A stretch of DNA of 62,440 nucleotides. Source: an uncultured Pelagibacteraceae bacterium. Lineage in GTDB: Bacteria; Pseudomonadota; Alphaproteobacteria; Pelagibacterales; Pelagibacteraceae. Positions within the stretch are counted from its first letter, which is position 1. Every line of letters starts with the position of its first letter. The notes below the pieces were generated by a model. The model was not told the DNA's origin, did not search any database, and worked only from the letters and a program-made list of their open reading frames with translations. Below are positions 7,682-42,094 of this stretch, in pieces. Both the position numbers and the translations under genes were made by a program. Location: NCBI GenBank assembly GCA_902551445.1, contig CACDDB010000001.1, forward strand, positions 1 to 62,440, given 5' to 3'.

Positions 7682-7756
7682 GGTCCCTTCGTCTATCGGT
7701 TAGGACACATGGTTTTCATCCATGAAAGAGGGGTTCGATTCCCCTAGGGACCGCCA
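7682..7756 (+). tRNA. tRNA-Glu(TTC)
   Basis: GGTCCCT acceptor stem, anticodon arm CATGG-TT-TTC-AT-CCATG, GGTTCGATTCC T-arm, encoded CCA. Confidence 0.97.
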
Positions 7757-7758
7757 AT

Positions 7759-8025
7759 ATGACTTTTTTTGTGTATATGATCGGAACAAAAGTCAAAAAA
7801 AAAACAATATCTTATGTTGGATATACAAATAATTTAAAAAATAGAATAAATTTACATAATACTTCTAAAGGTGCAAAATTTACCAGAGGAAAAAAATGGA
7901 AATTAATTTATTACAAAAAATATAAAAATAAAAATGAAGCAATGAAAAACGAATATAAACTTAAAAAAAATTATATATTAAGAAATAAAATTAAAAATGA
8001 AAATTTCAATCTTACTACCATTTAA
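7759..8025 (+). CDS. Small stand-alone GIY-YIG nuclease
   Basis: FVYM...YVGYTNNL..R...HN..KGAKFT, EA...E..LK. Confidence 0.9.
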   Translation: MTFFVYMIGTKVKKKTISYVGYTNNLKNRINLHNTSKGAKFTRGKKWKLIYYKKYKNKNEAMKNEYKLKKNYILRNKIKNENFNLTTI

Positions 8026-10129
8026 AGAAAATTTTTCTCCTAATTACGCTGGAGCAGTGTCATTATTTGTTAAAGATACGTCTAAAATAAGCAAATTTAA
8101 AAAAAACATAACTATATTTGGAAATACTGAATATAAAAAAAAATTTAATTTAAGGTATAAAAATATTAAAATTAAAAAAAAAATTTTCCAAGGTCAAAAC
8201 AAAGCTTATGTAAATGAATTTATTAAATATGAAATTAAAAATAATTCTAATTTAATAGAATTACACAACAGACCTTTTTATCTAAAATTATTAAAAAATA
8301 AGCTTAATAACAAAATTTACACATTTTACTTTCATAATGACCCATTAACAATGACTGGATCTAAATCTATTAAAGATCGAACTTATTTAATAAATAATTG
8401 TCAAAAAGTAATTTTTAATAGCAACTGGTCTAAGAAAAGATTTCTTCAAGGAATGCATTTTGATTACGTTAATAGTGAAAAGCTAATTGTTATTAATCAA
8501 TCTGCAAAAAAAAATAAATTTAAAATTAAAGATAAAAAAAATATTATAACATTCGTTGGGAAACTTAATAAAGCAAAAGGATATGATATTTTTGGAAATG
8601 CAGTAACAAAAATTCTTAAAAAAAATAAAAGCTGGAAATCTATAGTTATAGGTGACGAACCTAGAGATCAGTTAGAATTTAAGCACGAAAGGTTAATTAA
8701 TTTAGGTTTTGTAAATCATGAAAAAGTTTTGAAAATTTATAAAAAAACAAGTATTGCGATTGTTTGTTCAAGATGGGATGAACCATTTGGTAGAACAAGT
8801 CTTGAAGCGTCTGCAAATGGATGTGCGGTTATAATTAGTAATAAGGGTGGATTACCTGAAACGATCACAAATGCTATAATTTTAAAAAAATTAAATTCAG
8901 CAAATCTTTATAATGAAATTGATGCTCTAATTAAAAATCATAAATTCCGTTCAGAACTTCAAAAAAAATCATATGAGAATTTTTATTTAACACATAGCCA
9001 TGTAACAAGATTATTAGATAAACTAAGAGGTGAAATATTATTTTCAAAAAATATTTATCTTAAAAAACCTCTTAAACCTATAAGGATTATTCATGTTACT
9101 AATTTTAACGAAAGACACAATGGTAGACTTTTTTTTAATACTGGTAGAAGATTAAACAATGGATTTATTAGATCTGGACACACAGTACTTGAATTTAGTG
9201 ATAGGGACATACAAAAGCATTACAAATCCTACAATGATTTAACTGGTGGAAAATCTCTAAATGAAAAATTATATAAAACTTGCCATAATTTTAAGCCTGA
9301 TATGATTGTATTAGGTCATGCTGATTTAATCGAAACAAATACATTGGGCAATCTAAAAGATGAATATCCTCACTTAAAAATTTCTCAATGGTTTTTGGAT
9401 CCCCTTAACAAATATGGTCCTGATTATATTAAAAATAAAAATAGAATTTTAGATAAAAGTCAATTTATTGATTCTAACTTTATAACAACAAGTCCTGATG
9501 TGCTTAACTTTCTATCAAAAAAAACAAAAAATTTTTTCATACCTAATCCAACTGATCAATCTTTTGAAACTCTAGAAAACTACAAAAAAGAATGTAGTGT
9601 AGATGTTTTTTTTGCTTTAAGTCATGGTGTGCATAGAGGAAAACTAAAATCTAGAAATTCTGATGATAGAGAGCTATTTATTAATAAATTATTAGTTAAT
9701 TCTCAAAGCGTTAAATTCGACTTATATGGTGTAAATCAAATACAACCTATATGGGCTGATCAATTTTTTAAGGTAATTTCTAACGCAAAAATGGGTTTAA
9801 ATCTTAGTAGGGGCGATCCAATAAAATACTATAGTAGTGATAGAATTGCACAGATAGTTGGTAATGGTTTAGTTACTCTTATTGATGAAAAAACTTGTTA
9901 TAATGACTTTTTTAATAATAACGAAATGGTTTTCTATAAAAATATTTCAGATTTATCTGAAAAAATTATGAAAATAAGCAGAGATGAAAAGCTAAGGAAA
10001 TTAATAGCTAAAAAGGGGAGAGATAAATACCACAAATATTTCAATTCTAACCTAGTATCAGAGTTCATAGTTAACAAAACACTTGAAATTAATCATAATA
10101 AAAATAAATATTTATGGCATAGACCATAA
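7997..10129 (+). CDS. Two-domain glycosyltransferase (GT4-like plus second GT-B/CgeB-like domain)
   Basis: AGAV, FVGKL..AKG and EPFGRTSLEA in the N half; LNLSR, YSSDR and IA..G in the C half; 710 aa. Confidence 0.85.
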   Translation: MKISILLPFKENFSPNYAGAVSLFVKDTSKISKFKKNITIFGNTEYKKKFNLRYKNIKIKKKIFQGQNKAYVNEFIKYEIKNNSNLIELHNRPFYLKLLKNKLNNKIYTFYFHNDPLTMTGSKSIKDRTYLINNCQKVIFNSNWSKKRFLQGMHFDYVNSEKLIVINQSAKKNKFKIKDKKNIITFVGKLNKAKGYDIFGNAVTKILKKNKSWKSIVIGDEPRDQLEFKHERLINLGFVNHEKVLKIYKKTSIAIVCSRWDEPFGRTSLEASANGCAVIISNKGGLPETITNAIILKKLNSANLYNEIDALIKNHKFRSELQKKSYENFYLTHSHVTRLLDKLRGEILFSKNIYLKKPLKPIRIIHVTNFNERHNGRLFFNTGRRLNNGFIRSGHTVLEFSDRDIQKHYKSYNDLTGGKSLNEKLYKTCHNFKPDMIVLGHADLIETNTLGNLKDEYPHLKISQWFLDPLNKYGPDYIKNKNRILDKSQFIDSNFITTSPDVLNFLSKKTKNFFIPNPTDQSFETLENYKKECSVDVFFALSHGVHRGKLKSRNSDDRELFINKLLVNSQSVKFDLYGVNQIQPIWADQFFKVISNAKMGLNLSRGDPIKYYSSDRIAQIVGNGLVTLIDEKTCYNDFFNNNEMVFYKNISDLSEKIMKISRDEKLRKLIAKKGRDKYHKYFNSNLVSEFIVNKTLEINHNKNKYLWHRP

Positions 10130-10977
10130 TGTTTTCAATAGTAATACCAACTTTTAATAATTGCAAATATTTAAAACTTTGCTTGGAAAGTATTAATAAA
10201 AATTCTTCATACAAACATGAAATTATAATACATTCAAATGATGGATCAGATGGAACAAATGATTTTTTAAAAAAGAATAAAATTAAATTTTCGTATTCGG
10301 AAAGCAATCTAGGATTATGTACTTCTATAAATGAAGCTGTAAAATTAAGTACTACTAACTATATATTGTATAGTCACGATGATATGTATTTTTGCCCAAA
10401 TTGGGATAATGTATTATTAAATGAAATAAAAAAATTAAAACACGAAAAATTTTATTTAGGAGGCACTATGATTCAGCCATCAGGTGCACACGTGTCGTTA
10501 GATTGTGGAAATTCGATAGAAACATTTAATGAAAATAAATTATTAAAAAATTATCAAAATTATAATTTTTTTAATCATCAAGGAACTCATTTTGCACCTC
10601 ATCTAGTTACAAAAAATATGTGGAATAAAGTTGGTGGTTTTAGTGAAGAATTTAATCCTGGTATAGCTTCTGACCCTGACTTTAATATGAAACTTTGGAA
10701 AGAAGGAGTTAGAATATTTAAAGGTTTAAATGATTTTAAAGTTTACCATTTTGGATCTCAAACAACTAGAAAAAATTTGGGTATTAAAAAAAATAGGGGT
10801 GACCTAACATTCATTAAAAAATGGGGAATTAGTGTTAAATTTTTTAAAAAATATTATTTAAAAACTAACTCAAAATATGAATCAGAATTAACTGAACCAA
10901 TAAGAAATATATATTACTATAAAGACCTAATAATAAATAAAATTTATTATTTAATAATTAAAATTTTAAATAAATGA
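10129..10977 (+). CDS. Glycosyltransferase family 2
   Basis: SIVIPTFNN, NDGSDGT, HDDM (DxD-like), VGGFSEEF. Confidence 0.9.
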   Translation: MFSIVIPTFNNCKYLKLCLESINKNSSYKHEIIIHSNDGSDGTNDFLKKNKIKFSYSESNLGLCTSINEAVKLSTTNYILYSHDDMYFCPNWDNVLLNEIKKLKHEKFYLGGTMIQPSGAHVSLDCGNSIETFNENKLLKNYQNYNFFNHQGTHFAPHLVTKNMWNKVGGFSEEFNPGIASDPDFNMKLWKEGVRIFKGLNDFKVYHFGSQTTRKNLGIKKNRGDLTFIKKWGISVKFFKKYYLKTNSKYESELTEPIRNIYYYKDLIINKIYYLIIKILNK

Positions 10978-11957
10978 AATTCTGCTTTTTAGATCAGACA
11001 AATTTTGAATATTCATATATGGACAAATATTCACCAATTTTAAGAGGCGCAGAAACAATACTAATTAATCTTTCTGAAAATTTAAAAAAAATTGGTCACG
11101 AAGTAACTGTTTTTAATAATTGTAGTGACAAAATTCATAATGATAGTTCAAAATGGTACAACATAAAAAAATTGAATATCTCAGAAAATTTAAATTTTGA
11201 TGTCGCTATTGCAAATGCCGACATGAGGCTTTTGAATAAAGTAAATGCTAATAAAAAATTAATTATATCATATTCCCTACAATCACTGGAAAAATTTTTT
11301 AGAAAAGGCCAATTTTTTTCATATTTCAAAAACAGGCCTGAGGTATATGTTATTGGAAATTATCACAAAAATAAAAGATCACATCTTTTATCACTTTTTG
11401 GAAAAAAAATATTGGATGTTTCTATTGATGATTTGTTTATGGAAACTGAATTAACAAACAATATAGACCATAATCAAGCGATATTTACTTCTAGACCTGA
11501 TAGAAATTTAAATAAACTACTTGATATATGGAATAATAAAATATTTCCAAACTACAAATCTGCAAAATTAATCACAACACCTGATAAAAATGTTAAAGAG
11601 ACCAATGGTGTAAAATTTAGAATAATGAGTTCTCAAAAAGAATTAATAGATGATCTTTTAAAATCGAGAATTTTTCTTATACCAGGTCATAAAGCTGAAT
11701 TATTTTGTTTAGCCGCTGAAGAGGCTAGGGAACTTTGTATTCCTATCGTTACTCTAGGAATTGGTTCTTTATTTGAAAGAGTGGTACATGAAAAGACTGG
11801 TTTTATTGCAAAAAATGATAGTGAATTTGCTGATTACACAATTGAACTTTTTAGAAATAATGATCTTTGGAACAATATTAGATCTAATCTTATTAATTTA
11901 CGCGGTTCTAGAAGTTGGGAAATATCAACTAAAAAATTTATCGAAAGTTTAAAGTGA
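10974..11957 (+). CDS. Glycosyltransferase (GT4/GT-B)
   Basis: RGAET, GHEVTVF, SRPDR, ELFCLAAEEA, V.HEKTGF. Confidence 0.85.
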   Translation: MKFCFLDQTNFEYSYMDKYSPILRGAETILINLSENLKKIGHEVTVFNNCSDKIHNDSSKWYNIKKLNISENLNFDVAIANADMRLLNKVNANKKLIISYSLQSLEKFFRKGQFFSYFKNRPEVYVIGNYHKNKRSHLLSLFGKKILDVSIDDLFMETELTNNIDHNQAIFTSRPDRNLNKLLDIWNNKIFPNYKSAKLITTPDKNVKETNGVKFRIMSSQKELIDDLLKSRIFLIPGHKAELFCLAAEEARELCIPIVTLGIGSLFERVVHEKTGFIAKNDSEFADYTIELFRNNDLWNNIRSNLINLRGSRSWEISTKKFIESLK

Positions 11958-12706
11958 TTTATTTAAAGTTTATATCCAGATTAATGAAGTTTTTTAAATC
12001 TTTATTAACAATTACACAGTTATCTAATCATAAATTTCAAAACAAAAACCAAGTAACTAATGCGAAAATTATATTGAATCTTTTAAAAAATAAAAATTTT
12101 TCTCCCAATTATATCGTTGATGTGGGTAGTGGTTATGGAGAATGGACTAAAAAATTATTAAAGGTATTTCCTAAATCTGATTTTTACCTTTTTGATGCAG
12201 ATAAAAATAACATTGAAAAACTCGATATCTTGAAGAAAAAGAATAAGAATATTAATTACAAAATATGTTTATTAACAGATGATAATAAGACATATAATTT
12301 TTATAATATGGGATACGGTTCATCAATTTTTGAAGAACAAACTTCACATAATAGAAATGTTGAAAAAATTACGTCTACTACATTAGATCAAGAGCTTCCC
12401 GATGAATTAAAAGAGCAAACTAATAATTTAATCAAGCTTGATGTACAAGGATCTGAATTAAAAGTACTGGAAGGTTTAAGAGAGACAATTAATACATTCG
12501 AAGTTATTATTTTAGAAGTTTCTATACATAATTATAATAAAGATTCACCACTATTTGATAAAATAATGAACTATATGAATGAAAAAGATTATAGATTATA
12601 TGATTTGTTTGATTTAAAGCGTTTAGGTGATAACAATTCTTTCCTTGTTCAATTTGATTGTGTCTTTGTAAGAAAAAATTCTGAACTTTTTAAAGTTAAA
12701 TTTTAA
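11954..12706 (+). CDS. FkbM family methyltransferase
   Basis: VDVGSGYG SAM motif, TTLD, IKLDVQGSEL..LEG. Confidence 0.92.
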   Translation: MIYLKFISRLMKFFKSLLTITQLSNHKFQNKNQVTNAKIILNLLKNKNFSPNYIVDVGSGYGEWTKKLLKVFPKSDFYLFDADKNNIEKLDILKKKNKNINYKICLLTDDNKTYNFYNMGYGSSIFEEQTSHNRNVEKITSTTLDQELPDELKEQTNNLIKLDVQGSELKVLEGLRETINTFEVIILEVSIHNYNKDSPLFDKIMNYMNEKDYRLYDLFDLKRLGDNNSFLVQFDCVFVRKNSELFKVKF

Positions 12707-13649
12707 TTTTATTTAAAGCATTATTTTTAAATATATTTGCTTCTCTTATATATCTTCTAACCATTTGTGTTGTTTTGTGTCCTGTCATTGCCATAATACT
12801 TCTTTCATCAGCTCCTGATTCAGCGGCAACTGTTGCAAAACCTGATCTTAAACTATGTCCTGAGTAATTCTTATTTTCTATACCCGCTAGATTCAAATAA
12901 TCTTTAATTATTAAAACTACTGACTGATCTGTTAATCTATTGTTTGTTAATACGGATCCTTTTGCAAATCGTCTAAAAATTGGACCAGATTTTATATTTG
13001 ATAACTCTATCCATCTTTTTAGGTTAATTACTGGACAGTATTTTTCATTTGTGAAGTAGGGTAGACCTTTTATCATTCCTTCGCCAAATTGATCTGTTTT
13101 TGACCTTTTAATAGTTATTTTAACCCCCTCTTGAACGAATTCTAAATCCTCATGATCGATTGATATTAATTCGGTTCTTCTAAATCCGCCTCCAAAACCA
13201 ACTAACAAAATTGTTTTGTCTCTAATTTTTTTTATTTCTTCTGCTTCTTGATCATCAATAACATTAATAAGTGATTTTAAATGATTGATTAATATAGGTT
13301 TTTTTCCTTTTTGGATGCTTCCTTTAACCCTTCTAATACCCATTAAATTTTCTATAATTATGGGATGTTTGGTATCTAGATAATGCCCTTTAAGCCTATG
13401 AATCATGCTTATTGATACTAATCTTCTTCGTAAAGTACTGATTTTTGAACTTTTTGATAGATGCGTTAGGTAAAGAGATATTATTTTAGGTTCAGTTGGA
13501 AGGGAATCAAAGCCATGCTTTACACAAAATGCACCAAAATCCCTAAAATCTGACTTGTAAGCTCTTAAAGTGTTATTAGACTTAGAGCTTTTGAGGTTAT
13601 TTAATGTTTCCTCATGAAGTGATTTTATGTCTGTAACAAGTTCATTCAT
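12696..13649 (-). CDS. Site-specific tyrosine recombinase (Cre/IntA-like)
   Basis: N-terminal S.NTLRAY.SD; catalytic set FRRTE (R), RSKTDQ (K), GHSLRSG (HxxR), TGHK (H), RRY (Y) all intact. Confidence 0.93.
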   Translation of the reverse strand: MNELVTDIKSLHEETLNNLKSSKSNNTLRAYKSDFRDFGAFCVKHGFDSLPTEPKIISLYLTHLSKSSKISTLRRRLVSISMIHRLKGHYLDTKHPIIIENLMGIRRVKGSIQKGKKPILINHLKSLINVIDDQEAEEIKKIRDKTILLVGFGGGFRRTELISIDHEDLEFVQEGVKITIKRSKTDQFGEGMIKGLPYFTNEKYCPVINLKRWIELSNIKSGPIFRRFAKGSVLTNNRLTDQSVVLIIKDYLNLAGIENKNYSGHSLRSGFATVAAESGADERSIMAMTGHKTTQMVRRYIREANIFKNNALNKIKI

Positions 13650-13652
13650 ATA

Positions 13653-13687
13653 ATTACTATTGATAACAATTAATTATCGTTAGTAAT
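13653..13687. promoter_or_regulatory. Putative recombinase binding/crossover site (14-7-14 inverted repeat)
   Basis: ATTACTATTGATAA-CAATTAA-TTATCGTTAGTAAT; arms match 12/14; starts 4 bp upstream of the recombinase ATG. Confidence 0.7.
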
Positions 13688-13733
13688 ATAATAACGCATT
13701 TTTAAAGTCAAGCAATTAATATAAAATTATTAA

Positions 13734-13898
13734 ATGCCAAAATATGCTTTAATTGGATTGATAGTAGTAATTGCAACATTTGTAATTATAAATCATTGGT
13801 CAAAATTAACGGAAAAAACAAAAAATAAAATAATTGCATCAATATTTGGAATAATTGCAATAGGATTTGTAGTAATTATTGCACTGTTAATATTTTAA
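13734..13898 (+). CDS. Small two-helix membrane protein (54 aa; below the ORF-track cutoff)
   Basis: MPKYALIGLIVVIATFVIINHWSKLTEKTKNKIIASIFGIIAIGFVVIIALLIF*: two hydrophobic segments joined by a basic loop. Confidence 0.7.
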   Translation: MPKYALIGLIVVIATFVIINHWSKLTEKTKNKIIASIFGIIAIGFVVIIALLIF

Positions 13899-13902
13899 AA
13901 TG

Positions 13903-13920
13903 TTTTCCACATTATCCACA
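13903..13920 (+). promoter_or_regulatory. Two abutting DnaA boxes
   Basis: TTTTCCACA (13903-13911) and TTATCCACA (13912-13920), both matching TTWTNCACA, in non-coding DNA. Confidence 0.55.
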
Positions 13921-13992
13921 ACTGTTAAAAAGTCAGTAAATTCAACAATAAAGTGATACATACAACCATATCAGTCTGATATTGTTAAATTG

Positions 13993-14177
13993 AATTAAGG
14001 GGCAACCCTTAACTGGCCGATTGGGGAAAAACCGAGAGGTTCAAGCCCAGGGGGCAGAAAGCTCTACAAAGCAGCGCTAAACATGTGGAGCGGAAGGCAT
14101 GGCGGTAGCGCATTAACGACGTGCCAAAACTACTGTTCTTTGTGCCGTAAAAAGCACAAGGAAACAGGGTTTTTCTT
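13993..14177 (+). ncRNA. Structured non-coding RNA upstream of ogt (family unassigned)
   Basis: ~52% GC by hand count in an AT-rich background; five hairpins, a GNRA tetraloop, complementary loops GCGCTA/TAGCGC, and a terminal hairpin followed by a T-tract. Confidence 0.8.
14133..14177 (+). terminator. Rho-independent terminator-like hairpin closing the ncRNA
   Basis: CTGTTCTTTGTGC-cgtaaaaa-GCACAAGGAAACAG followed by GGTTTTTCTT. Confidence 0.6.
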
Positions 14178-14183
14178 CATAAA

Positions 14184-14459
14184 ATGTTCAAAAAAGGCAC
14201 AAAATTTCAAATAAAAGTCTGGAAATACCTTTTAAAAATACCCAAAGGAAAAGTAAAAACCTATAAACAAGTTGCTATAGCTATAAATAGACCGAAATCT
14301 GCTCGTGCTGTTGCTAACGCATGTGGAAAAAACCCGTATGCACCTAGGGTACCGTGTCATAGGGTAATTAGATCTGATGGGACTCTTGGCGGTTTTTCTG
14401 CTGCTGGAGGAATAAATGCTAAAAAAAAACTCTTAAAAAAAGAAGGTTTTTTGCTCTAA
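14184..14459 (+). CDS. ogt: Minimal O6-methylguanine-DNA methyltransferase (MGMT C-terminal domain only)
   Basis: T.FQ.KVW, IPKG...TY, ARAVANAC, active-site PCHRV. Confidence 0.92.
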   Translation: MFKKGTKFQIKVWKYLLKIPKGKVKTYKQVAIAINRPKSARAVANACGKNPYAPRVPCHRVIRSDGTLGGFSAAGGINAKKKLLKKEGFLL

Positions 14460-14806
14460 AAGCTTTTATTACCAACGATTTTTGCCTATTTTCATCTAAT
14501 TATCTTATATTAATTAGTTTCGCCCTTTAGTTGTACTGTATATTGTGTCATTTAAAAATATACCCCTTCTATGGCCGTTTAATCGCTATATTCTATATAT
14601 GCAATCCTCTTTGGATCTATTATTAAAAAGTTAAAATTTTTCCTATATTCCCTTAATTTTTTGTTTATTTAAGACTTTTAAATTTAATTTTTTTATATAC
14701 TAACCAATTATCTCCTAGAAACCTTGATTTTAAAGGTTTTTTAATTTTGTATTTACCTATTCTTATTTTTTTTTATTAATTCATTAATTTTAATATTATT
14801 TTAATA

Positions 14807-14872
14807 ATTTACTTTAATTAATTAAAAATTATTAATAATTACAATGATTTACATTAATTAATTAAAGTAAAT
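14807..14872. repeat. Perfect 19-bp inverted repeat in a very AT-rich gap
   Basis: ATTTACTTTAATTAATTAA (14807-14825) and TTAATTAATTAAAGTAAAT (14854-14872), 28-bp spacer. Confidence 0.6.
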
Positions 14873-14881
14873 AATTAATTA

Positions 14882-15730
14882 CTAAGTAGGTTGATTTAAA
14901 GCTTCTCTTCTAAATATGTAAATGCCAGATGAGATAATCACAAATAAACCAAGAAATGTCCAGATATCAGGAAAATGGTTAAAGAAATAAAAGCCAATAA
15001 TAATATTAGTTACAATTTCAAAATATCCAAAAGGAGCTAATTTAGAGGCATCTGCATATCTTAAGGAAAGAATGAGTAACAAATGACCAATAGAAGCAAA
15101 AAAACCTATAGCAAGCATCATATACCAATCAGTAACAGTTGGCTGAACCCATACAAAAGGCATAATAGCAGATCCAATAATAGCCCCTACTACACCTGTT
15201 AATAAAAGAGTTAAAAGTGGATGGTCAGCATTATGTAGTTTTCTGGTAACTATTAAATAAATTCCATATAAAAAACCTGTTCCTATTGCAGCTATACTAG
15301 CAGTATTTATCTCTACAAAACCAGGTCTTAAGACAATTAATGATCCAATAAAACCAGTAATTACTGCAGCCCATCTTCTTAATCCAACTTTTTCGTCTAA
15401 TAAGATAGGTGACAGAATCGTTACAATTAAAGGTGCTATAAAGGCTAGTGTAAGAGCTTTTGCTAAAGAAATTATTGATATCGAATAAAAAAATAAAATG
15501 TTAGCACAAAATAATAATAAACCTCTAATTAGTTGGAGTTTTGGTTGTTCGGTCCATTTAAAATTTTTTCTGAAAAAAACAAGTATAATTGGAAGAACAA
15601 AAATGACTGTAAAGAAATATCTAGACCATGTTATTTGTAATATAGGTATTGTTGAACTTAGATATTTAGCAAATCCATCCATTATGGGTAACATTACCCA
15701 CGCAGATAAATTTAATATTATTGCCTTCAT
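14882..15730 (-). CDS. DMT/EamA family transporter
   Basis: About 10 hydrophobic helices; E.VG.RRW.AV..GF.G..IVLRPG, AS.LAPF.Y. Confidence 0.9.
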   Translation of the reverse strand: MKAIILNLSAWVMLPIMDGFAKYLSSTIPILQITWSRYFFTVIFVLPIILVFFRKNFKWTEQPKLQLIRGLLLFCANILFFYSISIISLAKALTLAFIAPLIVTILSPILLDEKVGLRRWAAVITGFIGSLIVLRPGFVEINTASIAAIGTGFLYGIYLIVTRKLHNADHPLLTLLLTGVVGAIIGSAIMPFVWVQPTVTDWYMMLAIGFFASIGHLLLILSLRYADASKLAPFGYFEIVTNIIIGFYFFNHFPDIWTFLGLFVIISSGIYIFRREALNQPT

Positions 15731-16629
15731 TAAGAAAAATATTTCAAGGCAATAAATACAATAATTGGTACAGTTATTAAAGACATTAAAGTAGATATAA
15801 CTATCATACTAGATATGTTATCCACAATTTTTTTAGGTGAGTAAATTGAAGCAATTAAATAAGTTAATATAGCACTAGGCATAGCAGATTGAATTAATAA
15901 AACGCCCGCAGCATATCCAGATAAATTAAATACTTTAATCAAACAAAAACCAATAATTGGACCAACTATTACTCTGCCTATTGAAGATATTAAAGAAGTT
16001 CTAATAGAAAAAACTTTCATTTGAGTTAACGAGACTCCTAGAGACATTAATATCAAAACAATCATAGTATAACCTAATAACATAACCGTATTTAATGCAA
16101 ACTTTGGCATTTCAAAATCAAAATACAAGAAAAGAACTGAAATAATTACAGCATATGTTGAGGGACTTTTTAAAATAATTTTAAAATCAAATTTTTTACT
16201 TGCTAAAAAAATGTTTAGTGTAAAATGTAAAAGAACAACTAAAGATGATATGGCTGCCGCAACGCCCATTCCCAATGAACCATAAGCGAATAAACATATT
16301 GGAATTCCCATGTTTCCTGTGTTTGGAAGAAAAAATGGAGGTAATTCTCTAGAAATATCTTTTTTCATGAAATACAAAAAAATTACGCCTGTAATTGCAA
16401 AGCAACTAAGAGCAATTACTGAGTAAATAAAATATTCAGAGAAAACGCTATAAGTAACACCAGAAGATGTAATAGCAAAAATAAAGAGGGCTGGTGCACC
16501 AAAATTAGCTGAATAATTTGTTATAAAAGTTGTATCTATATCTGCTTTTTTCCTACCAAGTAAATATCCAATTCCAACTATAAAAAATACTGGAAATAAA
16601 ACTTCAAATAATTTTAAATAAATTTCCAT
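15730..16629 (-). CDS. AEC (auxin efflux carrier) family transporter
   Basis: PNTGNMGIP, QSAMPSA; highly hydrophobic. Confidence 0.9.
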   Translation of the reverse strand: MEIYLKLFEVLFPVFFIVGIGYLLGRKKADIDTTFITNYSANFGAPALFIFAITSSGVTYSVFSEYFIYSVIALSCFAITGVIFLYFMKKDISRELPPFFLPNTGNMGIPICLFAYGSLGMGVAAAISSLVVLLHFTLNIFLASKKFDFKIILKSPSTYAVIISVLFLYFDFEMPKFALNTVMLLGYTMIVLILMSLGVSLTQMKVFSIRTSLISSIGRVIVGPIIGFCLIKVFNLSGYAAGVLLIQSAMPSAILTYLIASIYSPKKIVDNISSMIVISTLMSLITVPIIVFIALKYFS

Positions 16630-18288
16630 TTAATTAAATAAACGGATAAGAGTTGGCTTTTTTATAATATTTGTATTTTTCTTAAAAATATGTAGACATA
16701 TATTTGAATCTTTTTCACTAGTTTTGTGTGTAATAATAACAATAGTTGCTATTTTTTTTTTATTTGCTGGTGTTTGTATAATTCTTTTAACAGATATTTT
16801 ATTCTTTGCTAATATTTTAGTTATTTCGGATAAAACACCAGGCTTATCTTTAACCTCAAATCTTAAATAAAGAGAGTTTGTATAATTATTTATATTGTAA
16901 GAACTTATTTTGTTTCTTATCTTGCTAGGTATTCCGAATGGGAATTTAATATTACCTCTTAATATAGATAATAAGTCTGACATTAAAGCTGATGAAGTAG
17001 GACCTGGTCCAGCACCCTCCCCTTGTAATACTGTTTCTCCAACTGGTTTGCTATTTAGAATTACAGCATTCATTACTCCATCAATATTCCCAAGATACGT
17101 GTCACTACCAACCAAACAAGGATGTACGCGTTCAAATAACTTATTTTTCACTATTTCAGTGATACCTAAAAGTTTAATTTTTAGATTTAATTGTTTTGCT
17201 ATTTGAATATCCTTTAAATCAATGTTTTCAATACCTTCCATCAAGCAATGGGATTTAGAAATTTTTTTATTAAATGCAAGAGATGAAAGAATTCGAATTT
17301 TTGCTAGCGCATCATATCCGTTTAAATCTAATTTAGGGTCAACAGGTTCAGCGTATCCTAATTTTTGTGCACGTTTTAAAACAATAGGTAATGACATTTT
17401 TTTTTTTTCCATTTCAGATAATATGTAATTAGATGTGCCATTTAATATTCCTTCAACTGTATCTTTGGGCATAAATTTTTTTTTTGCTTTTTTAAATGTA
17501 AATCCTTTTCCTAAATAATTCCCCATTTTGCTATTTCTTCCACCTGCCGCACTAACATATAAATCGCCCACTCCCGCAAGTCCCAGAGTTGTTGCTTCTT
17601 TTCCCTTAAAATACTTAGTTAAATACTTCATTTCAATTATTGATTTTTGAAATAAGCTTGATGATGTATTTAAGCTTTGACCTGCGCCAATTATCATTGC
17701 GTATATATTTTTTATCGCAGAACATACTTCTACACCAATAGTATCATTAGAAAATTCTATAACGTAATATTTTGTAGAAATCATCTTGCCAATCTGTTTA
17801 GCTATTTTAATATTTTTATTTGCTACAATTACACTAGTATGTTTTTTTCTAGCTAGTTCCTTGGCTAAGCAAGGACCTTTTAAAACTGAAATATTCATTC
17901 CATTGTAATTCTTTTTTAATTGTTCCGAAATTGTTAAAATTTTATTATTTTTTTTTTCGTATTTTAATCCTTTGGTAAGTATCAATATTGAATTTTTGAA
18001 TTTTGACTTTTTTAGTTCTTTGCTAATAAAGTCAATACCCGAAAGGCTTAAAGCTATTACTATCAAATCAAATTTTTCTCTCAACAAATCTGTGGAAAAT
18101 TTTCTAAATTTTAAACTTTTTGGAAGATTTATCTTTAAACTTGTGTGAAATTTATTTTTTGAGGATAAGTCTTTAATAAAAGCTTTGCTATAAGGTTCTG
18201 TAATAGTAACTTTATTTTTATTTTCTATGCAAGGAATTGTAAATGCAGAACCCATTGCCCCGCCACCAATGACTAATATTTTTTTCAT
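16630..18288 (-). CDS. In-frame chimera: NAD(P)H glycerol-3-phosphate dehydrogenase (aa 1-280) plus homoserine dehydrogenase C-terminal region and ACT domain
   Basis: GpsA motifs GGGAMG, TKG, GPCLA.E, KNIYA, GVGDL, GRN, TVEG, then Hom motifs GILNGTSNYIL, AQ.LGYAE, G.GAG..PT.SA..SDL and ACT DKPGVL. Confidence 0.75.
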   Translation of the reverse strand: MKKILVIGGGAMGSAFTIPCIENKNKVTITEPYSKAFIKDLSSKNKFHTSLKINLPKSLKFRKFSTDLLREKFDLIVIALSLSGIDFISKELKKSKFKNSILILTKGLKYEKKNNKILTISEQLKKNYNGMNISVLKGPCLAKELARKKHTSVIVANKNIKIAKQIGKMISTKYYVIEFSNDTIGVEVCSAIKNIYAMIIGAGQSLNTSSSLFQKSIIEMKYLTKYFKGKEATTLGLAGVGDLYVSAAGGRNSKMGNYLGKGFTFKKAKKKFMPKDTVEGILNGTSNYILSEMEKKKMSLPIVLKRAQKLGYAEPVDPKLDLNGYDALAKIRILSSLAFNKKISKSHCLMEGIENIDLKDIQIAKQLNLKIKLLGITEIVKNKLFERVHPCLVGSDTYLGNIDGVMNAVILNSKPVGETVLQGEGAGPGPTSSALMSDLLSILRGNIKFPFGIPSKIRNKISSYNINNYTNSLYLRFEVKDKPGVLSEITKILAKNKISVKRIIQTPANKKKIATIVIITHKTSEKDSNICLHIFKKNTNIIKKPTLIRLFN

Positions 18289-33642: not shown

Positions 33643-34971
33643 ATGTCAAATTTGCCTACAAAAGCAAAGGTTGTTATAATCGGAGGAGGTATTCATGGCT
33701 TAAGTACAGCATGGAAACTTTCAGAAACATACAAAAATCCAAATGACATTGTTGTATTAGAAAAAAAAGATACAGCAGCGGGTGCTAGTGGAATAGCTTG
33801 TGGAGTAGTTAGAAACAACTACTTTCAGCCAGCAATGAGACAATTAATGGCTCACTCTGTTGAAGTTTGGGAAAGTGATCCAAAAGCATTTAAATACAAT
33901 CCAGTAGGATACATGCAAATCTCACCTGAAATTATGCATAAAGATGTTGCAAGTATTTACGAGCAACAAAAGGCTATTGGTTATGAATCTGTATTCATTG
34001 AAGGCGAAAAAGATTGCATGAAATATATGAAGGGAATGTTTGATGATTGGCAAGCACAAGGAATAACTTCTGTTCTTCATGAAAAAAAAGGTGGATACGC
34101 ATTTAATAAAGATTCAATTAAAGCAATAGAAAGTAAAGCTAACGCTAATGGAGTAAATGTTCATAAGGGGGTTAAGGTAACGGGTTTTAAAAGAGGAAGT
34201 AATAGTAACGCTATAACAGGAGTAGAAACTAATAAAGGAACGATAGATTGTGATCAAGTGGTAATTGGAGCTGGTCCCTGGGTGAGAGATTTTTGGAACA
34301 TGTTAGATTTACCAAAAACAACTGATGTAAAAAGTAAAGATGGAAAAATGCATACCGTAGATATGTGGACATACTGGTTTTTACAAGAAGGTGTTTTAGG
34401 TGTTGATGCGGACTATTTAAGAACTAATGATGGAAAACTACCCCCTGTCATTCATGTTGATACAGATGCTCCGTTGTATTCTGATAAAGATAAAAAGCTA
34501 ATAACTGATAAACTTTGGGGAATTTATTATAAACCGGATATTGAAGGTTTGGGTGTGCAAGGTGGTACTTCTCCTTACATAGTGCAAAAACATTTTGATG
34601 AAGTAAAAGTGGATCCATATGGAATTGAGTCACCAGACTACCAAACTACAGATGCATTTTCTGAAATGTGGACATCTGCTTTGGCTCATTGTCAAAAACG
34701 TTTTGAAGGAAAGTCCAATTTATATAGAAAAGGTCCTTCAGGTGGATTGGGCTGTTTAACACCAGACTCATTTCCTATCTTCGATAGATTTTGTGAAAAT
34801 GTTTATATGATAGCTGATGCAAACCATGGTTATAAAATGTTAGGTGTTGGTCATTTAGTTGCTCAGGAAATCTTAGGGAAAGAAAGTGAATTATTAAAAC
34901 CATTTAGATTCAACCGATACGCGAAGGGAGAATTGCACCCCACTTCGAACAGTCCTTTTCCTTGGAGTTAA
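33643..34971 (+). CDS. mgdA: FAD-dependent oxidoreductase, N-methylglutamate dehydrogenase subunit A / SoxB-like
   Basis: GGGIHG, GASGIACGVVRNNYFQP, NHGYKM, C-terminal SNSPFPWS; NMG pathway context. Confidence 0.7.
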   Translation: MSNLPTKAKVVIIGGGIHGLSTAWKLSETYKNPNDIVVLEKKDTAAGASGIACGVVRNNYFQPAMRQLMAHSVEVWESDPKAFKYNPVGYMQISPEIMHKDVASIYEQQKAIGYESVFIEGEKDCMKYMKGMFDDWQAQGITSVLHEKKGGYAFNKDSIKAIESKANANGVNVHKGVKVTGFKRGSNSNAITGVETNKGTIDCDQVVIGAGPWVRDFWNMLDLPKTTDVKSKDGKMHTVDMWTYWFLQEGVLGVDADYLRTNDGKLPPVIHVDTDAPLYSDKDKKLITDKLWGIYYKPDIEGLGVQGGTSPYIVQKHFDEVKVDPYGIESPDYQTTDAFSEMWTSALAHCQKRFEGKSNLYRKGPSGGLGCLTPDSFPIFDRFCENVYMIADANHGYKMLGVGHLVAQEILGKESELLKPFRFNRYAKGELHPTSNSPFPWS

Positions 34972-35040
34972 ACTTACTGTGTGGACACAAATAAAAATAT
35001 CAGCTAACTTTTATGTTATAAAAATTCTTTAAGGGGGACA

Positions 35041-36510
35041 ATGACTGATCTAGAAAAACATGTAAATCAACCAGGCAGAGATAAACTTGTTAAAAAAGTT
35101 AGAGAAAAAATTAATGAATTAGGAATTACATATATTTATTACCAATTTATATCTGTAACAGGACGTGTTGTTGGTAAAGGAATTCCTGCAGACCATTGGG
35201 AAAGAACTGCAGAAAAAGGTTTTCAATTGGTTTATGGATCTACTGCTAACTTATTTGTAGACAGACATAAAAATTATATTGGTTACGGTCCAGAAGCAAT
35301 GGAGCTTGTTGGCATACCTGATCCTGAAACTTTCTGTCAATTACCTTGGGACAAAAGAATTGGAAGAGTTTTTGTTACATGTTTTAGAAATAGAGAGGAA
35401 AGACAAAATCCAGGAGGACATTTAACCTCTGATTGTCGAGGAAACCTAAGAATATTTATGGATGAATTTCAGAAAAAACATGGATTAGAATTGAGAGTTG
35501 GAACTGAACCTGAAATGATGTGGTTGACAAAGAATCCTGATGGAACTCCTACTGGATCAGGTTTTTCTAAACCATACTGTTATCACATTGATCAATTTGA
35601 GTCGTTGAGACCTGTATTTATGAAAGTAATTGAATATGCTTCAGCCATGGGTTTAGATATGATTCAAGGTGACCATGAAGATGCGCCAGGACAATTAGAA
35701 TTAAACTGGACATATGATAATGTCTTAAGAAACGCTGATAGACTTTCTACTTACAGGCAAATTTGTGCACAAGTAGCAAGGGAACACAATTTAATAGCAT
35801 GCTTTATGACAAAACCATTTATGGGTGTATCTGCAAGTGGTTGTCATACAAACATGTCTTTATGGAAAGGCGGAAAAATTGTAACAAACAAATTAGGTCA
35901 TAAAAAATTACCAGGAGTAGAGGAAGTTTTTGGCTATGTACAGGGAGGCACAAATACTTTTATGCCTGATACTAAAGACATGCAATTACCTGGTAAAATT
36001 GGTTTACAATCCATTGCCGGAATAATGGAACACTTGCCTGCTTTAACTGCATTAGGATCTTCAACAGTTAATTCTTACAGAAGACTTTGGGATCAGGGTT
36101 TCTGGGCTCCAGTTTATGCTGATTGGGGATATCAAAATAGAACTTGCGGTTTAAGAGTATCAGCTCCTGGAAGATTCGAATATAGGTCGGTTGATTCAAT
36201 GCACAATCCATATCTATTGGGTGCAGCTATATTAAAAGCGTGTGACCATGGTATTTCAAAAAAACTAGTTCCATCTAAGCCTGAGTCTAGAAGTATGTAT
36301 GAAGCTAAAAAAGAAGGTAAAGATGTCAAAAAACTTCCATTAAGTTTGGGTGAAGCATTGGATAGACTATCTGAAGATGAAGTTATTAAATCAGCATTGC
36401 CAGATGAGATGTATAAAGTTTTCCATTGGTATAAGAATGATGAGTGGGAAAAATTCTTAGGTGCTACAACTCAATGGGATTTAGATACTTATTTGGATTG
36501 TCTTCCATAG
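35041..36510 (+). CDS. Glutamine synthetase-like (gamma-glutamyl ligase) protein
   Basis: GTEPE, DHEDAPGQLE, TKPF, SGCH.N.S, NSYRRL, NRT..LR, RFEYR. Confidence 0.85.
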   Translation: MTDLEKHVNQPGRDKLVKKVREKINELGITYIYYQFISVTGRVVGKGIPADHWERTAEKGFQLVYGSTANLFVDRHKNYIGYGPEAMELVGIPDPETFCQLPWDKRIGRVFVTCFRNREERQNPGGHLTSDCRGNLRIFMDEFQKKHGLELRVGTEPEMMWLTKNPDGTPTGSGFSKPYCYHIDQFESLRPVFMKVIEYASAMGLDMIQGDHEDAPGQLELNWTYDNVLRNADRLSTYRQICAQVAREHNLIACFMTKPFMGVSASGCHTNMSLWKGGKIVTNKLGHKKLPGVEEVFGYVQGGTNTFMPDTKDMQLPGKIGLQSIAGIMEHLPALTALGSSTVNSYRRLWDQGFWAPVYADWGYQNRTCGLRVSAPGRFEYRSVDSMHNPYLLGAAILKACDHGISKKLVPSKPESRSMYEAKKEGKDVKKLPLSLGEALDRLSEDEVIKSALPDEMYKVFHWYKNDEWEKFLGATTQWDLDTYLDCLP

Positions 36511-36531
36511 CAATTATTAGGAGAAAAAAAT

Positions 36532-37473
36532 ATGTGCGGAATAGCTGGGCTTATTCATAGAGGTAAGTCCTCAAATGTGGGTGAAGAACTGCAAAGCATG
36601 CTTCAGGCTTTAAAACACAGAGGTCCTGACTCTACAGGATATGCTTTGTATGCAGACAATGACGGTCAAAACTTCATAATGAGATTTAAAGTTGGTGAGA
36701 ACGTAGCAGAAGGAAGTACCTCTGCTAATGAAGATGCAAGTGTATATGATGAAAGAAAAAAATTAGTAGATAAAAATCTTTCAGATTTAGGTGCAACAAT
36801 TGTTAAAGAAGAAAGGTTGACTCCGTATTCTTTTAGATACGAAATTAAATACGATAAGGATCTAATGGAATTTTCAAAAAAAATTGAAAGTGTTGAAATG
36901 GTTGAAATTCTTTCTATAGGAAAATCTCTTGAACTAATTAAAGATCTTGGAGACGCAGCTGCAGTCTCAGAAAGATATGGTTTAAATAAAGTAAAAGGAA
37001 CACATGCAATAGGTCACGCAAGAATGGCTACTGAGTCTGGTGTTGACATTAAATCAGCTCACCCTTTCTGGGGCTATCCTTTTAGTGATGTATCTGTTGT
37101 TCACAATGGTCAATTAACAAACTATTGGAATAATAGAAGAGCCTTAGAAAATAAAGGCATGAGATTTATGTCTGAATGCGACTCTGAACTTATTGCGGTA
37201 TATTTGGCAGAAAAAATGAGAAATGGTGCAACTTTAGAGGAAGGCATGAAAGATTCACTATCTGGATTAGATGGAGTTTTTACTTACTTTGTTGCAACAA
37301 AAGATTCGCTTGGAATGGCTAAAGACACTATGGCTGCTAAACCGTTAGTATTATATGAGTCAGACGATTTGGTAGCGATGGGTTCTGAAGAAATAGCAAT
37401 TAGATCTATACTTCCACAAGAAATAACAACTTATGATCCTTTTGATGGAGAAGTAAAAGTATGGCAAATTTAA
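36532..37473 (+). CDS. mgsA: N-methylglutamate synthase subunit A (class II glutamine amidotransferase, GlxB-like)
   Basis: MCGIAG, HRGPDSTG, GHARMATES, HNGQL, DSE. Confidence 0.82.
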   Translation: MCGIAGLIHRGKSSNVGEELQSMLQALKHRGPDSTGYALYADNDGQNFIMRFKVGENVAEGSTSANEDASVYDERKKLVDKNLSDLGATIVKEERLTPYSFRYEIKYDKDLMEFSKKIESVEMVEILSIGKSLELIKDLGDAAAVSERYGLNKVKGTHAIGHARMATESGVDIKSAHPFWGYPFSDVSVVHNGQLTNYWNNRRALENKGMRFMSECDSELIAVYLAEKMRNGATLEEGMKDSLSGLDGVFTYFVATKDSLGMAKDTMAAKPLVLYESDDLVAMGSEEIAIRSILPQEITTYDPFDGEVKVWQI

Positions 37474-38315
37474 AAACTACTCAGAAAAAAACTAAAGCCC
37501 AATCAATGGGCATGCACACTGAGGTCCTAACTGGAAAAACTCAGCAGAAATTCTTTAATCCTGACGAAGCAGAAAATTTTTTCTATTGGGGAACGCATGA
37601 TGTGGACTTTAATAAAAGAACGGAACTAGATGTTAAAGACATGGATTGTAAAGATGCAAATAGAAAAATAGACTCATTAATGAGTGAGGGTTATGGAACA
37701 ATTGTAATAAAAAATCCACAAGGAAAGCACAGCTTGGGCGTTGGAATATTAAATAAACTTAACCTAATTTTTGAAGGAAGCCTGGGTTATTTTGGTGTTG
37801 GTTCAATAGACGGTCCTATAGTTAGAGTTAATGGACGTGTTGGTTGGTCTTGCGCAGAAAACATGATGGCTGGAAAAGTCGTTATAGAGAAAAATGCTGG
37901 ATCTTGCTTTGGAGCAGCAATAAGAGGTGGAGATTTGATTTGTAAAGGGAGTGTTGGGGCGAGAACAGGTATTGACCAGAAAGGTGGTTCAATAATTGTT
38001 GGAGGAGACGCTGGTGCATTTACAGGTTTTATGATGCAAAGAGGCAGAATTGTTGTATTGGGTGATGTTGGAATTAATTTAGGAGATTCTATGTATGACG
38101 GTACAATATATGTGGGTGGTAAAATTGGTTCATTTGGTAGTGATGCGGTAGAAGCTCCTATGACAAAAAATGACATAGATTGGCTTAATAGAAAACTTAA
38201 AGTAGCAGAAATTGGAGAGAATTTTGATGTATCAAAAATGACTAAAGTTGTAGCTGGCAAAAAACTTTGGAATTACGATGCTTTAGAACCAACAGAGAAA
38301 AAAGGAGCAATATAA
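37461..38315 (+). CDS. mgsB: N-methylglutamate synthase subunit B (GXGXG beta-helix, GlxC-like)
   Basis: AENMMAG, G.VGAR.GI..KGG, GFMMQRG; Gly-rich repeats. Confidence 0.82.
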   Translation: MANLKTTQKKTKAQSMGMHTEVLTGKTQQKFFNPDEAENFFYWGTHDVDFNKRTELDVKDMDCKDANRKIDSLMSEGYGTIVIKNPQGKHSLGVGILNKLNLIFEGSLGYFGVGSIDGPIVRVNGRVGWSCAENMMAGKVVIEKNAGSCFGAAIRGGDLICKGSVGARTGIDQKGGSIIVGGDAGAFTGFMMQRGRIVVLGDVGINLGDSMYDGTIYVGGKIGSFGSDAVEAPMTKNDIDWLNRKLKVAEIGENFDVSKMTKVVAGKKLWNYDALEPTEKKGAI

Positions 38316-39700: not shown

Positions 39701-39708
39701 AGGTAAAC

Positions 39709-40119
39709 ATGGTTAAAAAAAAGAAAAATAAAAAGAAAAACGTTAAAGAGGCCAAAGGTCAGCTTGGTAAAAAGAAAGAAACAGCTAGAGAAAAAATGAT
39801 TGGCCAAACTATTGGATATAGATATGACGTAAACTTATTACCTGACTATAAAAAACTTACTCCATTTTTAAAAAAATATATCGAACACATGGGGTGGGAC
39901 GATCTTAATTGGTTAGAAGATGTTCATATGGGTTATGAAGAAGACAGGCCTGCTGTTTTTGATAGAAATGCTAATGGCTGGGTAACTATTCCTAATAAAA
40001 TTAAGTTACCAGATAACCAGCAAGATAGGGACATGATTGCAAGAGAGTTGCTTGTTAAATTTCAAATGTCTCCTAATCATCCATTAGTTGATCTAAAAAA
40101 AGCTTACTTAAAATTCTAA
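39709..40119 (+). CDS. Hypothetical protein in the mgs operon
   Basis: 136-aa ORF with AAGG RBS, 8 bp after mgsC; Lys-rich N-terminus. Confidence 0.75.
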   Translation: MVKKKKNKKKNVKEAKGQLGKKKETAREKMIGQTIGYRYDVNLLPDYKKLTPFLKKYIEHMGWDDLNWLEDVHMGYEEDRPAVFDRNANGWVTIPNKIKLPDNQQDRDMIARELLVKFQMSPNHPLVDLKKAYLKF

Positions 40120-40252
40120 TTAAATATAATTTTATCTACTTATAGTTGATTTATCTGTAAATAATGGTGCTCATAGTAGGTTTTTTACCATTGTACTCTT
40201 CGGTGCATTCATTAGAGTCACACTAATTTGTTTAAACAAATGGAGGTTAGAG

Positions 40253-41653: not shown

Positions 41654-41664
41654 AGGAGGATAAT

Positions 41665-41883
41665 ATGGCAGTAACAAATTGGGTAGATCATTTAAGTGCC
41701 AAAGAAGTTGCAGGCGCAATTTATCCTGGCGTAGGAACTGAAGGAATTTTAGTTCTTATTGGCTTTGTTCTGTGGATTGGTTGGCATGTGCTTCAGGCTA
41801 TGCAAGAGAATGATAAATTGAGTAGTCTTGCAAGAAAAAGGCATGGGCCAAACTCTCACAAAAGCAATGTTACCGACTGGTAA
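41665..41883 (+). CDS. Small single-helix membrane protein co-transcribed with amt
   Basis: AAGGAG RBS; one hydrophobic segment (ILVLIGFVLWIGWHV). Confidence 0.75.
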   Translation: MAVTNWVDHLSAKEVAGAIYPGVGTEGILVLIGFVLWIGWHVLQAMQENDKLSSLARKRHGPNSHKSNVTDW

Positions 41884-41898
41884 ATTGTAAACTTATTT

Positions 41899-41924
41899 TG
41901 AGGGCGTAATAAAATACGCCCTCA
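41899..41924 (+). terminator. Hairpin, probable terminator after the amt operon
   Basis: TGAGGGCGTA-ataaaa-TACGCCCTCA perfect 10-bp stem; no clear T-tract. Confidence 0.6.
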
Positions 41925-41932
41925 TGAGTTAA

Positions 41933-42094
41933 ATGGAAGACAATAATCAAGACACAAACCAAAACAAGATACCAAGTAAAATGGCTAGATTGGCATGGCC
42001 TAAAGCAAAGTATGGCGTGATTCTTGCAGTAATAATAATAATTTTGGTAAATTTAATTTATTATAAAGATTTCTTTTTATCTTTATTTAAATGA
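41933..42094 (+). CDS. Small membrane protein (53 aa; below the ORF-track cutoff)
   Basis: MEDNNQDTNQNKIPSKMARLAWPKAKYGVILAVIIIILVNLIYYKDFFLSLFK*; fills the gap before gmaS. Confidence 0.55.
   Translation: MEDNNQDTNQNKIPSKMARLAWPKAKYGVILAVIIIILVNLIYYKDFFLSLFK

Follow-up and report, generated by a model that had tools for sequence, protein, structure and literature searches.

A Cre-like recombinase and its palindromic site as the probable replacement for XerCD/dif in Pelagibacteraceae

Introduction

Which enzyme, acting at which site, resolves chromosome dimers in Pelagibacteraceae, the principal SAR11 family of the ocean? A 2009 survey listed P. ubique without dif/Xer and saw "no evidence" that bacteria of this kind have Cre/lox-like substitutes (PMC2731167). 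More recently, an October 2026 preprint named XerC and XerD in Arctic Pelagibacter isolates by automatic annotation, with no site given in the portion consulted (10.64898/2026.10.07.757358). The genome behind L357, one such Arctic Pelagibacter, contains a single tyrosine recombinase, i.e., the Cre-like one described here. Our literature search, whose reach excluded most subscription papers, found no paper on a recombinase-site module of SAR11, and a word search of two supplements of PMC3025954 did not return "Pelagibacter".

The question is raised by a locus within a 62,440-nucleotide stretch of DNA from an uncultured Pelagibacteraceae bacterium (contig CACDDB010000001.1; hereafter, the window). 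An initial annotation of this stretch had proposed that a plasmid-type resolvase and its site serve as a XerCD/dif replacement at the terminus, and the proposal was supported by every computational refutation test named beforehand (i.e., conservation of the palindrome upstream of orthologues, position relative to the skew inflection, patchiness of distribution, and the presence of xerC, xerD, and ftsK). Based on comparisons of genome sequences, we consider it very probable that a domesticated plasmid-type recombinase, together with its site, replaced XerCD/dif in place in Pelagibacteraceae. We propose with high confidence that the gene and its 35-bp site work like a single-recombinase dif system, the enzyme itself being no member of the Xer family.

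Results

An intact tyrosine recombinase with a Cre-like fold

The product of the gene in question (Table 1) carries a Phage_integrase Pfam domain (E 3e-20), and an alignment of 102 homologues revealed that R156, K183, H264, R267, and Y299 are invariant and that H290 is at least 90% conserved. The 317-aa protein, which had been described as an intact tyrosine recombinase from its sequence, does possess both the R-K-H-x-x-R-H/W-Y residue set and the fold of these enzymes. We take Tyr299 to be the nucleophile, and assume the roles of the other catalytic residues, by analogy to Cre/XerD. Foldseek analysis of the predicted structure (pLDDT 95.8) returned Cre or Cre variants at ranks 1-32 (TM ~0.8), and the values for XerH and XerA were 0.44-0.54.

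Scores against the Xer profiles were far below the cut-offs (76 bits for TIGR02225, cut-off 329.6; 46 bits for XerS, cut-off 267), and the protein forms a clade separate from the XerC/D/S/H/A subfamilies. More specifically, a tree computed without L213, L016, L002, and L025 placed it apart from XerC/XerD and grouped it with plasmid enzymes, IntA, a TnpS-like protein, and Cre (100/100), with Cre, IntA, and TnpS as long branches, any of which may be the nearest, and with no donor lineage singled out. By sequence, the most similar proteins from elsewhere are enzymes of plasmid or environmental origin (36-47% identity).

The dN/dS of the gene is ~0.07 (median of 29 pairs with close orthologues). 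Frameshifts were found in 3 of 134 orthologues (G071, G117, and G183, two of them single-contig genomes), and these may represent sequencing error or real loss. Metatranscriptome contigs span parts of the gene and are uninformative on strand, start, or level. When the catalytic domain was tested with FtsK-gamma, the score was 0.00, which counts neither way.

Table 1. Coordinates of the features discussed in the text (positions within the window)
Feature	Position	Strand	Basis
Gene for a tyrosine recombinase of 317 aa with a Cre-like fold; predicted to resolve chromosome dimers	12696..13649	-	Pfam, alignment, model, distribution
Tyr299 codon, predicted catalytic nucleophile	12753..12755	-	Invariant in 102 sequences
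Palindrome of 35 bp, with GATAA/TTATC cores in its 14-bp arms and a spacer of 7 bp; predicted crossover (dif-equivalent) site	13653..13687	.	Conservation, single copy
Promoter-side arm ATTACTAACGATAA (gene strand)	13674..13687	-	
Asymmetric spacer TTAATTG (gene strand)	13667..13673	-	TTAAT[T/G]G in 64/67 orthologue loci
Gene-side arm TTATCAATAGTAAT (gene strand)	13653..13666	-	
-35-like hexamer TTGACT	13706..13711	-	Sequence and orthologue alignment
Candidate -10 element TATTAC, spaced 17 nt from -35 and sharing the first five arm bases	13683..13688	-	Inferred from sequence
Glycosyltransferase gene, a synteny marker with no part in the mechanism; homologue flanks canonical dif in sister family	7997..10129	+	
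Nearest KOPS-like word, AGTAGGG from 13055, + strand	Vicinity 13049..13055	.	Word scan

A conserved palindrome upstream of the gene

The two arms of the palindrome are complementary at 12/14 positions and flank an asymmetric 7-bp spacer. This layout had been described correctly at the outset, but its position was one base off, since 3 bases rather than 4 separate the arm from the ATG and the site therefore begins at -4. The TTGACT hexamer that had been noted beyond the site is indeed present on the minus strand, and its TTGAC occupies the same column in 59/66 loci and is shifted by one base in the other 7. A consensus promoter scanner did not list the candidate -10 element TATTAC.

Inverted repeats of equal quality, some of them overlapping, number 186 in G000 (a 729-kb, 56%-complete assembly), and palindrome quality was therefore rejected as evidence, being at chance level. 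Since the palindrome is unremarkable by itself, our case is built on comparison between genomes. The site precedes the gene in 67/67 loci of orthologues with 61-87% protein identity (one locus is represented twice), and GATAA and TTATC are invariant in all of them while the flanking columns vary freely, as expected from the proposal that the palindrome is conserved upstream of orthologues. Moreover, the left arm reads TCC-GATAA in 10 loci, and the right arm reads TTATC-GGA in 9 of these 10; the two arms have thus changed together in 9/10 variant loci, and symmetry has been kept.

The claim that the site has no second copy also stood, as neither the G000 assembly (729 kb) nor the 1.34 Mb searched of G013 contained another match at ≥27/35. 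Like dif, the 35-bp site is a single-copy, non-coding, AT-rich palindrome. With one mismatch allowed, its 17-bp core was present in 24/24 gene-bearing genomes of five other genera, in 0/8 family genomes without the gene, and in 0/4 sister-family genomes; G300 has one extra one-mismatch core match with poor arms. Among the matches to the site pattern listed for named genomes (80 of at least 120 loci), the titles were nearly all Pelagibacter, Pelagibacteraceae, or Pelagibacterales, and the exceptions include one 3-kb Flavobacteriales MAG contig and one unclassified alphaproteobacterium. The recombinase N-terminal motif lay downstream of the site pattern in 118/120 of the matches listed.

The recombinase and XerC/XerD exclude each other

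Within a single draw of 200 genomes from the order, the recombinase gene occurred in 162/173 Pelagibacteraceae genomes (six of seven genera; the unpublished G239 is counted in both numbers and enters no other result here) and in 0/27 sister-family genomes, and a XerD-grade gene (TIGR02225, E ≤ 1e-40) in 0/173 and 27/27, respectively; the genomes are kin, and their counts are not independent. The sister-family pair was scanned in one genome, G037, where the two proteins are XerD and XerC by score (316 and 311 bits, just below the cut-offs). All 11 family genomes without a recombinase match are multi-contig drafts. The gene is carried by 20/20 single-contig genomes, none of which has a Xer-grade match. 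FtsK-gamma is kept in 27/28 family genomes and also in G000. In the genomes searched, neither a XerC/XerD pair nor canonical dif was found alongside the recombinase. Near-universal and mostly single-copy across the family, the gene is not patchy like a mobile element.

The site occupies the dif neighbourhood

Canonical dif (TTCGYATAA-TATATA-TTATGNNAAAT) had a perfect match in 13/18 sister-family genomes and in 0/12 family genomes. It is a 28-bp sequence with 11-bp arms, a 6-bp centre, and a TTATGTTAAAT-like XerD arm, whereas the 35-bp site has a 14+7+14 layout with GATAA cores. A homologue of the window gene at 7997-10129 adjoins 11/12 of the perfect dif loci examined in the sister family, and the sole G013 match to this gene lies 2-4 kb from the site, the identity of the flanking glycosyltransferases across the families being just 33-44%. 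The order in G037 is a glycosyltransferase, dif, and then tatD and metG, all within 6 kb; the first 400 kb of G037 contig 1 are the origin side, and dif is not there. We regard this shared dif neighbourhood, as read from gene order, as the strongest independent sign of the putative in-place replacement.

In the window, metG, tatD, glpX, tRNA-Pro, tRNA-Glu (7682), and a low-GC glycosyltransferase cassette lie to the left of the recombinase gene. To its right are an IMES-2 RNA and an O6-methylguanine DNA-binding gene, the latter being present in 33/33 orthologue loci. The cassette is variable, with its first gene in 18/33 loci and its third in 5/33. None of the 57 ORFs of the window belongs to phage or conjugation families, in keeping with the initial annotation, which had not mentioned the adjoining tRNA-Glu and variable cassette. 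It had also described most genes on both sides as converging on the recombinase; this is so on the left (10/13 ORFs) and weak on the right (26/43).

These neighbours bring up the alternative that tRNA-Glu and the glycosyltransferase cassette form a variable island with this enzyme as its resident integrase, or that the enzyme captures or excises incoming DNA, its terminus position being incidental. The low-GC cassette and tRNA-Glu do adjoin the gene, plasmid "site-specific integrases" are its nearest outside relatives (36-42%), and IntA, which has the same site core, is reported to cointegrate plasmids (PMC4928290). We nevertheless consider such a role improbable. Rather than the patchy spread and duplicated tRNA end of a tRNA-targeting island integrase, we found a near-universal, mostly single-copy gene, one site per genome examined, and no repeat of the tRNA end longer than 10 nt in 7760-16000. 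In addition, the cassette is a neighbour of canonical dif in the sister family, where the enzyme is absent, and an island integrase would leave the exclusion of XerCD unexplained.

The same neighbourhood bears on the still less probable idea that domestication left the protein as a DNA-binding factor (an autoregulator or terminus organiser) for which the site is an operator only, dimers being handled otherwise or tolerated. An operator could well overlap the predicted -10 region and abut the start codon as this site does, three copies of the gene are frameshifted, and Carnoy and Roten argue that small genomes can do without the system (PMC2731167). However, the catalytic residues are all kept, the module sits where dif does, and the asymmetric spacer, which is needed for strand exchange and not for an operator, is conserved in 64/67 loci.

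Position of the site at the predicted terminus and polarity of a KOPS-like word

The window alone cannot place the terminus, since its cumulative skew reaches two peaks of the same height, the second of them near 44 kb. In the complete relative G013, the site (617,601-617,635) is 2 kb from the cumulative GC skew maximum (615,773; 1,340,000 of 1,343,202 bases read), and the gene-orientation maximum is at 615,122; raw GC skew tracks gene orientation in this genome. The skew minimum (1,290,840 of 1,343,202) yields arms of ~670 and 673 kb, and hemE, mnmG, and ftsK lie 17-36 kb from it. Skew at fourfold-degenerate sites of G013 had its sign reversed and exhibited a broad turn only (540-700 kb). A search for clusters of DnaA boxes did not pinpoint oriC; dnaA is ~60 kb from hemE. 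Measured from hemE, the site lies 0.47-0.51 of the chromosome away in four more genomes; measured from ftsK, it lies 0.46-0.50 away in 20/20 single-contig genomes, with shared synteny partly responsible. The expectation that the locus lies near the skew inflection, opposite origin-linked genes, was thus borne out in complete genomes.

Canonical KOPS (GGGNAGGG) is rare, with 11 copies, 9 of which are directed at the site. In G013, AGTAGGG and GAGTAGG ranked as the top two among 12,650 7-mers after gene-strand correction (z 5.5 and 5.2). GAGTAGG, which was picked post hoc in G013 with the site used as the split, is directed at the site in 54/62 cases there (17/22 on antisense strands), with the best switch at 587-627 kb. 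Out of sample, 103/124 copies of AGAGTAGG are directed at the site in five other genomes (origin placed at hemE in four and assumed in G063). In three other genera, with two further genomes left out, the corresponding count for GAGTAGG is 107/138, and the site attains the maximum polarity score, common to just 1-2% of positions. Collectively, polarity of a KOPS-like word toward the site was found in nine genomes, and 8/8 AGTAGGG/GAGTAGG words of the window are directed at it. Because GAGTAGG resembles GGGNAGGG, we infer that FtsK reads it. The site accordingly has the terminus position of a dif site, the terminus being predicted from skew, origin-linked genes, and the polar word.

Copies of the arms on marine phage contigs

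A search of IMG/VR for the bare 17-bp core gave 34 matches, vs 28 and 41 for two shuffled-spacer controls. This raw count was rejected as evidence, being at chance level, and we therefore place weight solely on arm extension and terminase linkage. Host-like arms were found on both sides in 16/34 of the matches (9 distinct flank pairs) and in 0/69 of the controls, and a terminase was nearby in 22/34. An arm-anchored scan gave at least 39 terminase-linked loci from at least 120 loci (full flanks for 80). Among the matches listed, a host-like right arm occurred in 30 of the at least 39 terminase-linked loci vs 11/81 others, and the terminase-linked spacers were mostly YTTATGA (23), with just 2 having the host's TTAATTG.

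With duplicates and close kin included, the phage sites lie at most 1.2 kb upstream of terL in 53/53 cases and between terS and terL in 18/18. Isolates HTVC100P and HTVC035P contain tandem site-like repeats upstream of terL. HTVC010P has no GATAA-N6..8-TTATC and merely a degenerate arm before terL; the paper on phages of this type reports tRNA integration sites only, in the portion consulted (PMC8477408). The recombinase gene was present within 3 kb in 0/34 phage core loci, and a search of 154 viral loci with 25 window proteins revealed no phage-host junction at the site, the sole match being one recombinase (32%). The arm copies may allow the host enzyme to circularise or monomerise phage DNA, act as decoys for its binding, or permit occasional integration. 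Since single host loci have the spacer TTTATGG or TTAATGA, a spacer barrier between phage and host may be incomplete.

Least probable of all is that dimer resolution comes second and that the module serves chiefly to decatenate or unlink sister chromosomes or to protect against phage or plasmid multimers: Xer/dif is reported to decatenate with FtsK as well (PMC2680272) and arm copies do occur on phage contigs, but the chemistry and site would be the same, inseparable by sequence from dimer resolution, and nothing specific speaks in favour of this role.

Discussion

Proposed mechanism and significance

In the single-recombinase dif system that we favour, one recombinase monomer would bind each 14-bp arm, and FtsK, probably steered by the polar words GAGTAGG/AGTAGGG, would join the two sites of a chromosome dimer at the septum. 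The resulting tetramer would swap strands over the asymmetric spacer via Tyr299 and thereby yield two monomers. FtsK would serve as the positioning motor, as with engineered Cre/loxP at dif, and the model needs no direct activation. When bound, the enzyme would in addition lie over the -10 region and start site of its own gene, which it may thus repress.

We tentatively extend this scheme to a wider one, in which an ancestral swap of XerC/XerD/dif for a plasmid-derived Cre/IntA-type cassette at the same locus was combined with GAGTAGG steering and with adoption of the enzyme by pelagiphages; we find this possible but hold back from calling it probable. The result would be a natural counterpart of the engineered dif::loxP strain, with GAGTAGG as a lineage-specific KOPS word. 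Integrase-independent pelagiphages, whose full host arms lie between terS and terL, would exploit the host recombinase in the role of a phage Cre. Their most frequent spacer, YTTATGA, would let phage ends or dimers recombine mutually and not with the chromosome.

If dimer resolution by this module is true, it would close a printed gap, i.e., the listing of Pelagibacter without a dif/Xer system (PMC2731167). A non-Xer recombinase would then naturally fill the Xer role, with one gene saved in a streamlined genome. It would also predict that this hard-to-manipulate clade offers genetics a fixed landing site, that the recombinase and its site, with their natural variation in arms and spacer, are a candidate orthogonal pair, and that very abundant marine phages may be borrowing a function of their host.

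Comparison with known systems

The module probably originated from a plasmid-type family in which the gene and a GATAA-N7/8-TTATC site travel together. Uncharacterised plasmid "site-specific integrases" (Alicyclobacillus, Skermanella, Protochlamydia, Sporosarcina, and others) share 36-42% identity with the recombinase, and 3/6 of those examined have an exact upstream GATAA-N7/8-TTATC, with a near match in 2 more; unlike the SAR11 enzyme, they reside on plasmids, and their spacers are varied. The top-scoring characterised relative tested is the TnpS-like pWW0 protein WP_011005890.1 (29-31%, E 6e-31), which we take, from its divergent-gene layout, to be TnpS of Tn4651-type transposons. One query for its divergent partner gene (tnpT) found no homologue in G013 or in the 56%-complete G000, and the window is without a transposase, whereas TnpS/TnpT systems combine the divergent helper tnpT with a Tn3-type transposase. 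Exact GATAA-N6..8-TTATC is absent from the 10 kb of pWW0 examined, which hold just a two-mismatch version.

Cre/loxP of phage P1 offers the best structural likeness, and near-symmetric arms and an asymmetric spacer are found in both systems. The Cre fold is shared, but close homology is not (identity merely 23-24%), and the SAR11 gene is a chromosomal core gene whereas Cre is phage-borne. The site layouts differ as well, with 14-bp arms and a 7-bp spacer in SAR11 vs 13-bp arms in loxP, the spacer of which is 8 bp. In E. coli, Cre-loxP is reported to be able to stand in for XerCD-dif, in which case it needs KOPS-guided FtsK, and the engineered dif::loxP strain with Cre is a functional precedent for the SAR11 module (PMC2680272).

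IntA of Rhizobium etli plasmids has 25-29% protein identity to the recombinase. The likeness to its att site, which the initial annotation had pointed out, proved real: attA is reported as TCCGATAAGCATTACTTATCGGA, with the layout TCCGATAA-N7-TTATCGGA, and IntA cointegrates two plasmids through two such sites (PMC4928290). The 8-bp attA arms TCCGATAA/TTATCGGA are exact in 9/67 loci (one Pelagibacteraceae subgroup) and in several other genera, the window having GATAA-N7-TTATC only, and a site matching the IntA type lies upstream of the p42a recombinase. In contrast to the plasmid-borne pair of sites on two replicons, the SAR11 site is chromosomal and single.

In its general plan, the SAR11 module is like XerS/difSL (streptococci, lactococci), XerH/difH (Helicobacter, Campylobacter), and XerL/dif (Legionellales), each comprising one tyrosine recombinase, one non-coding terminus palindrome, and FtsK. 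It shares the linkage of gene and site with XerS and XerH, and mimics of the site occur on mobile elements, namely on marine phage contigs and, for XerL, on LME-1 (PMC9765430). What sets it apart from these three systems is an enzyme outside the Xer lineage and a 14+7+14 site with GATAA cores.

Recombinase orthologues and the region flanking the site

The recombinase gene is frameshifted at three loci (L081, L149, and L150, from the family genomes G071, G117, and G183), and the predicted dif-equivalent sites there are intact. In the orthologues at L071 and L031, the start that aligns to that of the query lies 56 nt from the site, and we therefore infer an N-terminal extension of ~17 aa in these two proteins. 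In the window, 300 bp separate the site from an IMES-2 RNA motif, and two metatranscriptome contig sets from a single sample revealed that coverage is deepest over this motif.

Site-like arrays in phages and a probably misbinned copy

Tandem arrays in which the two arm types of the hosts (ACTAAC and TTCC) are mixed were found on phage contigs (L181, L185, L191, L198, L201, L211, L219, and L618), and they look as if they were suited to cover several host subgroups. In run X3, a loose end with a join similar to these mixed-arm arrays was seen at 13689. A Flavobacteriales MAG also includes a contig of 3 kb (L367), probably misbinned, that carries the site together with its flanks.

Strand composition and the polar word

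Across the whole chromosome of the complete relative G013, fourfold-degenerate sites of the presumed leading strand carry more A than T and slightly more C than G, a bias opposite to the usual pattern. GAGTAGG, the KOPS-like word that points towards the site, is polarised in the sister family as well, where 10 of its 14 occurrences follow the skew direction (G037 C1, L242-L261); therefore, the word may predate the proposed replacement of XerCD/dif by the recombinase in Pelagibacteraceae.

Other genes and cassettes

Features annotated elsewhere in the window
Feature	Coordinates	Strand	Basis
IMES-2 RNA motif	13988-14127	+	Rfam RF02035, 154.8 bits
tRNA-Glu, then low-GC cassette (three glycosyltransferases and FkbM methyltransferase)	7682-12706		
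552-aa frame: NAD-dependent glycerol-3-phosphate dehydrogenase domains, homoserine dehydrogenase C-terminal part, ACT	16630-18288	-	
Overlapping ORFs of 196 aa and 125 aa	23019-23959	-	MORN repeats in one
Oxidoreductase, two glutamine synthetase-like genes, three glutamate-synthase-like subunits, ammonium transporter	33643-43439	+	

The gene content of the cassette that follows tRNA-Glu differs between relatives. The match of the 552-aa dehydrogenase frame to its G013 counterpart spans only ~275 aa, and the frame may have originated by fusion, by deletion, or as an assembly chimera. The overlapping ORFs, which sit within a glycine-betaine-type ABC cluster, are possibly a single split gene. Finally, the cluster with the ammonium transporter has a GC content of 35-38% and is reminiscent of the N-methylglutamate (methylamine) pathway, a putative assignment.
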